From Escherichia coli (GTDB taxonomy: Bacteria; Pseudomonadota; Gammaproteobacteria; Enterobacterales; Enterobacteriaceae): a DNA stretch of 64,000 nt. Each line of letters begins with the position of its first letter. The first letter of the stretch is position 1. The DNA is taken from the NCBI RefSeq assembly GCF_045037415.1, contig NZ_CP173438.1. One strand, 5' to 3'. The position numbers are program-made. Shown piece after piece: positions 45,701 through 48,462 of this stretch.

Positions 45701-48462
45701 TACCGTTGCTGGTCAGTCTAATGCCATGGCGTATGGCGAAGGACTGCCATTACCGGACAGGGAAGATGCGCCTCATCCCAGAATCAAACAATTAGCGAGA
45801 TTTACGCATACGCATCCCGGAGGCCCGCCATGTCACTTTAACGACATTATTCCACTGACTCACTGCCCACACGATGTTCAGGATATGCAGGGTTATCACC
45901 ATCCTCTGGCAACGAATCATCAAACACAGTACGGCACCGTTGGCCAGGCACTGCATATTGCACGGAAATTACTGCCCTTCATTCCTGATAATGCAGGGAT
46001 TCTCATCGTCCCGTGTTGCCGTGGCGGATCGGCTTTTACCGCGGGCAGCGAGGGGACATATTCAGAACGGCACGGAGCCAGCCATGATGCTTGTCGTTGG
46101 GGAACGGATACCCCGCTCTACCAGGATTTAGTCAGCAGAACGCGAGCCGCACTGGCAAAAAATCCGCATAACAAATTCCTCGGCGTATGCTGGATGCAAG
46201 GCGAATTTGACTTAATGACCAGTGACTACGCGTCACACCCTCAACACTTTAATCATATGGTTGAAGCCTTTCGTAGGGATCTAAAACAATTCCATTCTCA
46301 GCTTAATAATATTACTGCCGCGCCGTGGTTTTGCGGCGATACCACCTGGTACTGGAAAGAAAATTTCCCTCATGCGTATGAAGCTATTTATGGCAATTAT
46401 CAAAATAATGTTTTAGCCAATATTATTTTCGTCGACTTCCAGCAACAAGGTGAAAGAGGACTGACGAACGCGCCTGATGAAGATCCGGACGATTTAAGCA
46501 CGGGATATTTCGGTTCAGCGTACCGGTCAGCGGAGAACTGGACGACGTCACTGCGAAGCAGTCATTTCAGCGCGGCAGCCCGTCGGGGGATTATTTCTGA
46601 CAGATTTGTAGAAGCAATTTTGCAGTTTTGGCGCGAAAGGTGAGCGGGGAGTTTATTCATGGGGGATGTCCTTGTCCATTCCCAGAGCAGACAACAAAAA
46701 ACAAATGAGATCAAGGTAATATCTCTTCACTTGCGGGCTCGAACAGCAGGCAATTGCCAATATAATAATCTGGCACAAGGGTGAAAAACGCGCACCGCAT
46801 AAACCGTTGTTATTGCTTACAGATTAGCCGGATGCCTTAATAGACATCCGCGCCTTTTCGGTTATGGCTCGGAAATCTACGAACATCTACACAGTTTACT
46901 GGAACGTTTTGGGCCACAGCGTTCGCAGCACCGTCCTGATATGCCGTTCTGGCGATTATAAGTCGACGGATTCTGGCAAATAGACGATGATGATATGCTT
47001 AATGATGTTCAAAGAAATTAGGCCATTATTATATTATTGCTTGCATTTTCTTTCATTCCTAAAAGCACCCGCCATTAATCCCAGGCGCATTATGCAAAGG
47101 AAAATGATTAGGTAAACAATAAGATTTATAATCAGGAAAGGCGACTCGCAATAAAACGGAAAGTCGCCTTAACATTGGTAAAATATGCCCTTTACTACTC
47201 CTGTATCATGAACGGCTCATCACATTTAAAGCTGACGTTGATCCAGACTACCATATATTGCCTTTATTTCATTTTTTACGCCTTCGCCACGGTACACCAA
47301 AGACGTATCGTATCGTTGATACTTATCTTCCCGTGCAGCACTGAACCAGTTAAAAGATCCGACACACAGCAGTTCTTCATCCTCAATCACAATTTTGCTG
47401 TGGACACGATTAACCAATTTCGTAGCGATACCCATCTTATTGAGCTTTTCAACAGCATCATTCAGCAGATGTTGTTTCTCCTGACGCTTATCATCATCGA
47501 CATGCGCTATATTGCAGTTTTTATCCGTCACCACGGTAATATCAATGCCCCGGGAACGGGCCAAAGCCATTGATGCCAGAAATCCCGTTTGCTCCACTTT
47601 TTGCCAAGATAACCAAGGGGAAATAATCGTTATTTTCTTTTGAGCTCCGGCAAGAGTCTTGTTCAAAAATCCATCATGCTGCTCCACACCATGCAGCGTT
47701 GAAATTTGTGTATGTGCGGAAATTAAATCCTGTCGTTTCTGAAACTCAAATTGCAACGCATTATTATCTGAAGAAAAGAGATATTTTGCCAATAACCCTC
47801 GCGGCGAAAATGCGGGCTGCATCTCGATAAGGTCCATATCGCCAAATACCAGAAAACTATCTTTAGCGCGTGAGACAGCAACATTGAGGATACTGCTGTT
47901 GCTATCAAGAAACCTGCCATCTTCATGTTTTGAGTAGACAGGAGAAAAGAGAACAATCGCCCTTTCCGCCCCCTGCAAGGAGTGCACAGTCCCCACTGTC
48001 AGTGAACCCTGCTCGTCTTTGCCATTAATTTCCAGCTTACGCAATGACGTTTTGATAGCATTAACCTGCGCCGAAAATGGCGTCACAACACCAACAACTT
48101 TGTACAGTGGTTCCCCGTAATGGCGCTCTATATCATCCTTATGTGCCACCAGCCATGCTGCTATTGTTTCAGCTTCAAGAGGGTTATAACGGCTTCCTCC
48201 ATTTGGCTTCATGCCTCTACCATCAATATGTAAATATCCCATTGCGGGGAAAATCGTCCCTTTTTCCATCCCTCTTTTAGGCTGCAACTTACCGTGATAG
48301 CAAAGTGAGTTACAGTAGCCGATGAAGTGGTTTACTGAATTTGGCCACCTGAACAGAGGTGATATGCTCACCTCAGAACAACACAGGTGCCATAATGAAA
48401 AAAAGAAATTTCAGCGCAGAGTTTAAACGCGAATCCGCTCAACTGGTCGTTGACCAGAATTA

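Follow-up and report, generated by a model that had tools for sequence, protein, structure and literature searches.

A decayed EcoWI-like phosphorothioate-dependent restriction endonuclease gene, probably inactive, downstream of nanS in Escherichia coli

Proteins with a ScoMcrA-type sulphur-binding domain (SBD) recognise the Rp sulphur of phosphorothioate (PT)-DNA, and their C-terminal HNH domain cuts nearby. This is established for the family, not for the copy described below, and the activity of intact family members restricts incoming DNA from dnd+ donors. The closest described enzyme is EcoWI, for which the sources are Lutz et al. 2020 (PMC7461809) and Yang et al. 2022 (PMC9521924). Lutz et al. 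2020 (PMC7461809) describe a dimeric, Mg-dependent SBD-HNH enzyme of 33.4 kDa whose target is GpsAAC/GpsTTC, cleaved at N7/N6, and which restricts dnd+ plasmids in vivo. ScoMcrA, for which the roles of the sulphur-cavity residues have been described (Liu et al. 2018, PMC6224610), is a protein of 561 aa with SBD, SRA and HNH domains, whereas the E. coli family has the SBD and HNH domains only.

The 290-aa protein WP_000168572.1 of E. coli W has a calculated mass of 33.3 kDa, against the 33.4 kDa quoted for EcoWI. Under the REBASE naming convention, EcoWI is presumably the first enzyme named from E. coli W. From its mass and the name, WP_000168572.1 is probably EcoWI itself; the available text of PMC7461809 and PMC9521924, and of a supplement, gives neither an accession nor a strain for the enzyme. 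Synteny across E. coli genomes places intact orthologues of 283-290 aa at the same position downstream of nanS in three genomes. In LR-06 (locus L005, 5001-5873) and E. coli W (L008, 27974-28846, minus strand) the gene directly follows nanC-nanM-nanS, and in O157:H7 (L003, 4981-5832) its neighbours are a type II Zorya system and a nanM fragment. Of these proteins, that of O157 was scanned: it matches the NCBIfam profile NF045808 (PT-DNA_restrict) with an E-value of 2e-125 and also matches Pfam HNH_2; its residues 5-142 align to the ScoMcrA SBD structures 5ZMO, 5ZMM and 5ZMN with E-values of about 1e-8 (7.5e-9 for the SBD).

The window analysed here, a 64,000-nucleotide stretch of E. coli DNA (NZ_CP173438.1), holds only part of such a gene. 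Positions 46743-46989 (plus strand) very probably represent a non-functional pseudogene, the decayed N-terminal third of an EcoWI-like SBD-HNH PT-dependent restriction endonuclease gene. The remnant covers codons 8 to about 90, with 89-90% DNA identity to the intact genes (L003 5001-5248 and L005 5021-5268). It lies between nanS (45636-46643, plus strand), the 3' end of which is 97.7% identical to the intact-gene locus, and a yjhR fragment (47226-48371, minus strand), a pseudogene that keeps the C-terminal helicase and PLD part of an MkoC-like gene. The gap from the nanS stop at 46643 to the end of the yjhR fragment at 47226 measures 582 bp, in agreement with the approximately 580 bp reported in a first-pass annotation of this DNA. 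Directly upstream of the remnant, 46696-46742 (plus strand) is residual non-coding DNA of the distal 5' region, about 88% identical to the DNA 5' of intact alleles (88% by BLAST between window 46696-46755 and L005 4901-4960). Further upstream, an unrelated 49 bp (46647-46695) stand in place of a 108-bp stretch found with intact genes. The spacer between nanS and the intact gene carries, on the opposite strand, a 105-bp fragment of a different HNH endonuclease in LR-06 (L005 4797-4901) and E. coli W (L008 28946-29050).

Within the remnant, the three forward frames contain three collinear pieces of a single coding sequence. Translation in the frame of 46744 gives the first piece, QQAIANIIIWHKGEKRAPHKPLLLL (46744-46817, plus strand), which corresponds to codons 8-32. 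The second, YRLAGCLNRHPRLFGYGSEIYEHLHSLLERFGPQRSQHRPDMPFWRL (46818-46958, open from 46803, plus strand), reads YRLAGC...DMPFWRL, is one base out of phase with the first, and corresponds to codons about 33-79. After a TAA codon, the last homologous codons (46962-46989, plus strand) read VDGFWQIDD, against GDGFWQLHN in the intact genes. The first-pass annotation had quoted YRLAGCLNRHPRLFGYGSEIYEHLHSLLERFGPQRSQHRPDMPFWRL followed by a stop, and this peptide is indeed found in the forward translation of the window; its frame is a genuine remnant, and is the middle piece alone of the three. The length of 63 codons proposed for it at 46769-46960 has to be corrected: those coordinates are 1-2 nt off register at both ends, and the open frame has 52 codons (46803-46958, with TAA at 46959-46961), preceded by in-frame stops at 46782-46784 (TGA) and 46800-46802 (TAA). 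The suggestion that it might be the tail of a decayed gene was right about the gene and wrong about the end, what is kept being the N-terminal third (codon 8 to about codon 90, out of 283-290). The distrust expressed of any start codon was well founded, the ATG having gone with a 73-bp deletion; ATG, GTG and TTG are all absent from the frame, and a listing of ORFs with a 20-aa minimum gave no ATG-, GTG- or TTG-started ORF in it.

When the three pieces are joined, the resulting 84-aa peptide matches NF045808 with an E-value of 3.6e-26 over profile positions 12-89 of 284. Its score of 91.9 bits falls short of the curated cutoff of 180, which is to be expected of one third of a protein, and compares with 417.5 bits for the intact O157 orthologue. 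With the 290-aa protein of E. coli W, the remnant shares about 84% identity (69/82 codons) over residues 8-89, and the 52-aa frame by itself is 80% identical to residues 29-79 (E 1e-27). The exact translation of the remnant is present in the database as a partial product with a precomputed annotation of Pfam PF26340 (DNA-SBD_ScoMcrA). A local Pfam scan gave no match on the fragment; the local library is silent on PF26340 even for the intact protein, whereas precomputed annotations do list it. A search for homologous proteins with the reconstruction returned short or partial proteins of at most 163 aa only, and no intact allele closer than about 90%. The first-pass annotation had allowed for a frame with neither homologues nor conservation; homologues are abundant. 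The remnant is a pseudogene of the SBD-HNH family: it sits at the orthologous position, scores below the family cutoff, and has neither an HNH domain nor an intact ORF.

Four lesions can be read straight off the alignments of the window with intact alleles. The first is a deletion of 73 bp; its junction is placed at 46742/46743 but, owing to an ACAGC direct repeat, could lie as far as 46747 (46742-46747, plus strand). Intact alleles read GGCTTGA, then a stretch running from ACAGCCG to ATGGCTTCCAGTAAATCGCT, then ACAGCAGG; in the window GGCTCGA is followed directly by ACAGCAGG. Lost with this stretch are the proximal 5' region, the ribosome-binding site, the ATG and codons 1-7. The second is a 1-bp deletion at 46817-46818 (plus strand), where one A is gone (TTGCTATAC to TTGCTTAC) and the frame shifts. 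The third is a nonsense codon, TAA at 46959-46961 (plus strand), where intact alleles have CAA (Gln80). Finally, homology to intact genes stops at about 46989, approximately codon 90, so that the remaining ~585 bp, the 3' two-thirds of the gene, are gone, and with them the HNH domain (Pfam HNH_2 matches residues 182-236 of the intact protein). In their place is an AT-rich spacer of 236 bp (46990-47225) that runs to the yjhR fragment; across the four loci compared it resembles neither the intact genes nor their downstream DNA, and all K-12-type sequences examined have it adjoining the remnant without a break.

Compared with EcoWI, therefore, the window copy has no start codon, is frameshifted, carries a nonsense codon and is without residues ~90 to 290. 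Lacking a start, a continuous frame and the HNH nuclease, it cannot be an enzyme. The gene was destroyed by deletion of 73 bp between the ACAGC microhomologies, which took away the ribosome-binding site, the ATG and codons 1-7. The 1-bp deletion puts subsequent reading out of frame and the CAA to TAA substitution adds a nonsense codon, no order of these lesions being implied. Beyond about codon 90, unrelated AT-rich DNA has replaced the gene at the edge of a variable island with yjhR and topAI, probably by rearrangement at the boundary of an integrative and defence island hot spot. We also considered whether forms that look intermediate could order the lesions; this is unreliable, as those forms look like recombinants or a possible assembly artefact.

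The content 3' of the gene differs in every genome examined. In E. coli W, the gene is followed by a pair resembling McrBC and by a type I R-M system; in LR-06, H5 and KOL-1 by an integrase with P4-like primase genes, or by IS elements; in O157:H7 by transposase and integrase remnants; and in the window the remnant is followed by yjhR, an IS3 element and topAI. This difference from genome to genome places the gene at the nanS-proximal edge of a variable-island hot spot.

Substitutions point the same way as the lesions. The dN/dS ratio is 0.32-0.37 when the remnant is compared with intact alleles and 0.09 among the intact alleles themselves, and differences by codon position are an even 10/6/9 for remnant against intact and 4/3/17 for intact against intact, counts that are small, with ~25 substitutions. 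Constraint on the remnant is thus relaxed. Splitting dN and dS into two phases, which would give about 0.07 neutral divergence since inactivation, was not relied on, with ~25 substitutions only.

We are highly confident, on the basis of sequence comparison, that the remnant makes no protein and has no activity. Published plasmid data bear on this from another side: T7 Express (C2566, an E. coli B derivative) accepts dnd+ plasmids with normal efficiency, restriction being seen only if the strain is given ecoWIR on a plasmid (Lutz et al. 2020, PMC7461809). A genome of the T7 Express lineage (H45) carries only the remnant of the gene, nucleotides 21-268, and together these observations give independent, if indirect, support for reading it as a dead pseudogene.

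In a set of 5,426 complete E. coli genomes, the distribution of the gene was surveyed by megablast of the gap and by matches to the intact gene. Of these genomes, 4,859 have at least a part of it, and 1,707 have 80% of it or more. The K-12-type junction between remnant and 3' spacer occurs in about 1,725-1,727 of the 5,426, with carriers including K-12, B/REL606, T7 Express, Nissle 1917 and ST131; among the K-12-type matches listed, 10 of 12 begin at the 73-bp deletion, BS-04 and HH97 being the exceptions. Other genomes keep only nucleotides 1-94, 1-161 or 449-839 of the intact gene, and these differing truncations indicate that the gene has been cut repeatedly at the same boundary. Conservation of the remnant among carriers reaches 99-100%, and the non-coding spacer beside it is conserved to the same degree; such conservation could pass for constraint, yet is equally expected from recent shared ancestry.

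A few sequences combine features of both types of allele. In BS-04, HH97 and the metagenome contigs L010-L012, a 5' end of the intact type, ATG included, continues into the K-12-type TAA and 3' junction, which results in a 79-aa ORF (L014 (BS-04) 1539-1775, L010 414-653, L011 1540-1779, L012 1187-1426). These mosaics are rare: apart from the metagenome contigs, two of the 5,426 complete genomes have one. Their crossover falls near window position 46850, with the 3' part identical or nearly identical to the K-12 type in the sequences aligned (BS-04, L010 and L011); BS-04 and L011 are the same as the window from about 46850 on, and intact-like upstream. Divergence of the window allele from intact alleles is a uniform 10-12% along the entire remnant, and the mosaic forms are for this reason better read as recombinants than as ancestors. 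A different combination is seen in BHUCD01 (L013, NZ_CM183442.1), a K-12-sized "clinical" chromosome with both K-12-type deletions, yet with intact-type SNPs. This pattern is what a reference-guided consensus assembly would give, and may be an artefact.

It is conceivable, though unlikely, that the gene stump and nanS together form a conserved homology anchor for the swapping, between strains, of the variable defence and integrative islands downstream of nanS, in which case BS-04, HH97 and L010-L012 would be footprints of exchange. The internal crossover fits such an anchor without demonstrating it; if true, the role would be an evolutionary by-product and not a molecular function of the remnant. 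It is very improbable that the remnant has a non-coding role of its own, whether as terminator or 3' UTR of the nanS operon, as small RNA, as promoter for a neighbour, or as an anchor in island exchange. Seven sigma-70-like matches are found in 46500-47400 where 2.3 are expected, but most are in the spacer after 46990 and AT-rich DNA readily yields promoter-like matches; an Rfam search at E<=1 and a terminator scan both gave nothing. The mosaics BS-04 and L011, with their crossover inside the remnant, and the retention of part of the gene in 4,859 of 5,426 genomes beside highly variable content would suit an anchor, but a role as recombination substrate follows passively from homology and is no selected function.

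A functional small protein, translated from the 52 codons or from a shorter part with a non-canonical start and acting as an SBD derivative in PT-DNA binding or in interference with restriction, is less credible still. In its favour is the survival of sulphur-cavity codons. In the comparison with the SBD of ScoMcrA and SprMcrA (5ZMO, 5ZMM, 7CC9; PF26340), ScoMcrA H116/R117 and Y164/P165 correspond to H26/K27 and M74/P75 of the intact orthologue, all inside the retained stretch: the first piece has His-Lys (in HKPLLLL) and the second Met-Pro (in DMPFWRL). These codons are, however, now in two different reading frames. The ATG-started 79-aa version in BS-04, HH97 and L010-L012 also speaks for a product, but the frame in the window has none of the three start codons, and its ribosome-binding site and start are deleted. 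The remnant, unlike ScoMcrA, amounts to about half an SBD only: it ends at about residue 90, where the SBD used experimentally extends over some 170 residues, and the counterpart of the base-contacting loop (ScoMcrA S187-R191, here around residue 96-100) is beyond the truncation. The raised dN/dS, and a frame length that is not above chance, also argue against a product. No open stretch in the 582-bp gap exceeds 56 codons, a length that 94% of 1000 dinucleotide shuffles reach or surpass, so the significance of the frame comes from homology and not from length. The unremarkable length by itself would also suit a chance open frame in intergenic DNA without genic ancestry, which is ruled out by strong DNA and protein homology to intact genes at the same locus.

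The dead pseudogene favoured here is already known, in that PGAP annotates it in RefSeq. In AVS0453, REL606 and ST131 the feature is called [quoted passage not shown] (QU406_RS17550, ECB_RS26105, QJP64_RS18320). It is the same feature, mapping to window 46753-46958, and differs in ending at the TAA and beginning 10 nt inside the homology. The ST131 record is the same as window 46000-52700 apart from a single-base indel, PGAP pseudogene included. K-12 MG1655 (NC_000913.3) has the same 582-bp gap with five substitutions and no indels, and the curated record carries no feature at the remnant (4536268-4536514, complement strand). The value for annotation is thus that curated K-12 MG1655 omits a pseudogene that PGAP calls elsewhere; to specialists the remnant is unsurprising, and of little importance beyond tidy annotation.

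The remnant implies that the K-12, B, Nissle and ST131 lineages would be without EcoWI-type PT-dependent restriction, which may survive in roughly one in three complete E. coli genomes. Such a loss fits with the routine cloning of dnd clusters in laboratory strains. The remnant also marks the nanS-proximal boundary of the variable-island hot spot, where the same gene has been cut at several points.

Several neighbouring features were observed in the course of the analysis. The yjhR fragment matches PADLOC MkoC over positions 781-1135 of 1136 (E 8e-155), with AAA_12 and PLD domains, and is the C-terminal remnant of a Mokosh-type defence gene; the locus thereby holds two dead defence genes tail to tail. 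Inside the spacer, at 47140-47171 (minus strand) and about 55 nt downstream of the yjhR stop, is a 9-bp GC-rich hairpin (AAGGCGACU...AGUCGCCUU, -16.7 kcal/mol, z -2.4) that is a candidate yjhR terminator, passed over by the terminator scan on account of its long loop. Overlapping the nanS 3' end is a YthB-like 32-aa small ORF, MNKLPAHLSRQNCKIASTNLSEIIPRRAAALK (46562-46660, minus strand), which K-12 and REL606 annotation names YthB and ST131 annotation lists as a hypothetical protein. Just upstream of it are four of the five substitutions between the window and K-12 in the gap (46676-46688). The nanS gene is uninterrupted in the window, while in ST131 and several others PGAP calls it partial ("sialate O-acetylesterase, missing C-terminus"), which looks like an annotation artefact. 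Upstream of nanC, an ISL3-family transposase ORF (40855-42075, plus strand; DDE_Tnp_ISL3, HTH and Zn-ribbon) occupies the position of fimB in other strains, fimB itself not being identified in the window. On the other side, 48359-52600 holds an IS3-like ISEc52 split by a group II intron, the ltrA of which encodes a reverse transcriptase/maturase (RVT_1, GIIM). This arrangement of ISEc52 and intron is found in one of 5,426 complete E. coli genomes, an ST131 isolate (NZ_OY019088.1), relative to which the window has an extra T at about 50364 that splits ltrA into two ORFs (49741-50385 and 50357-51265).
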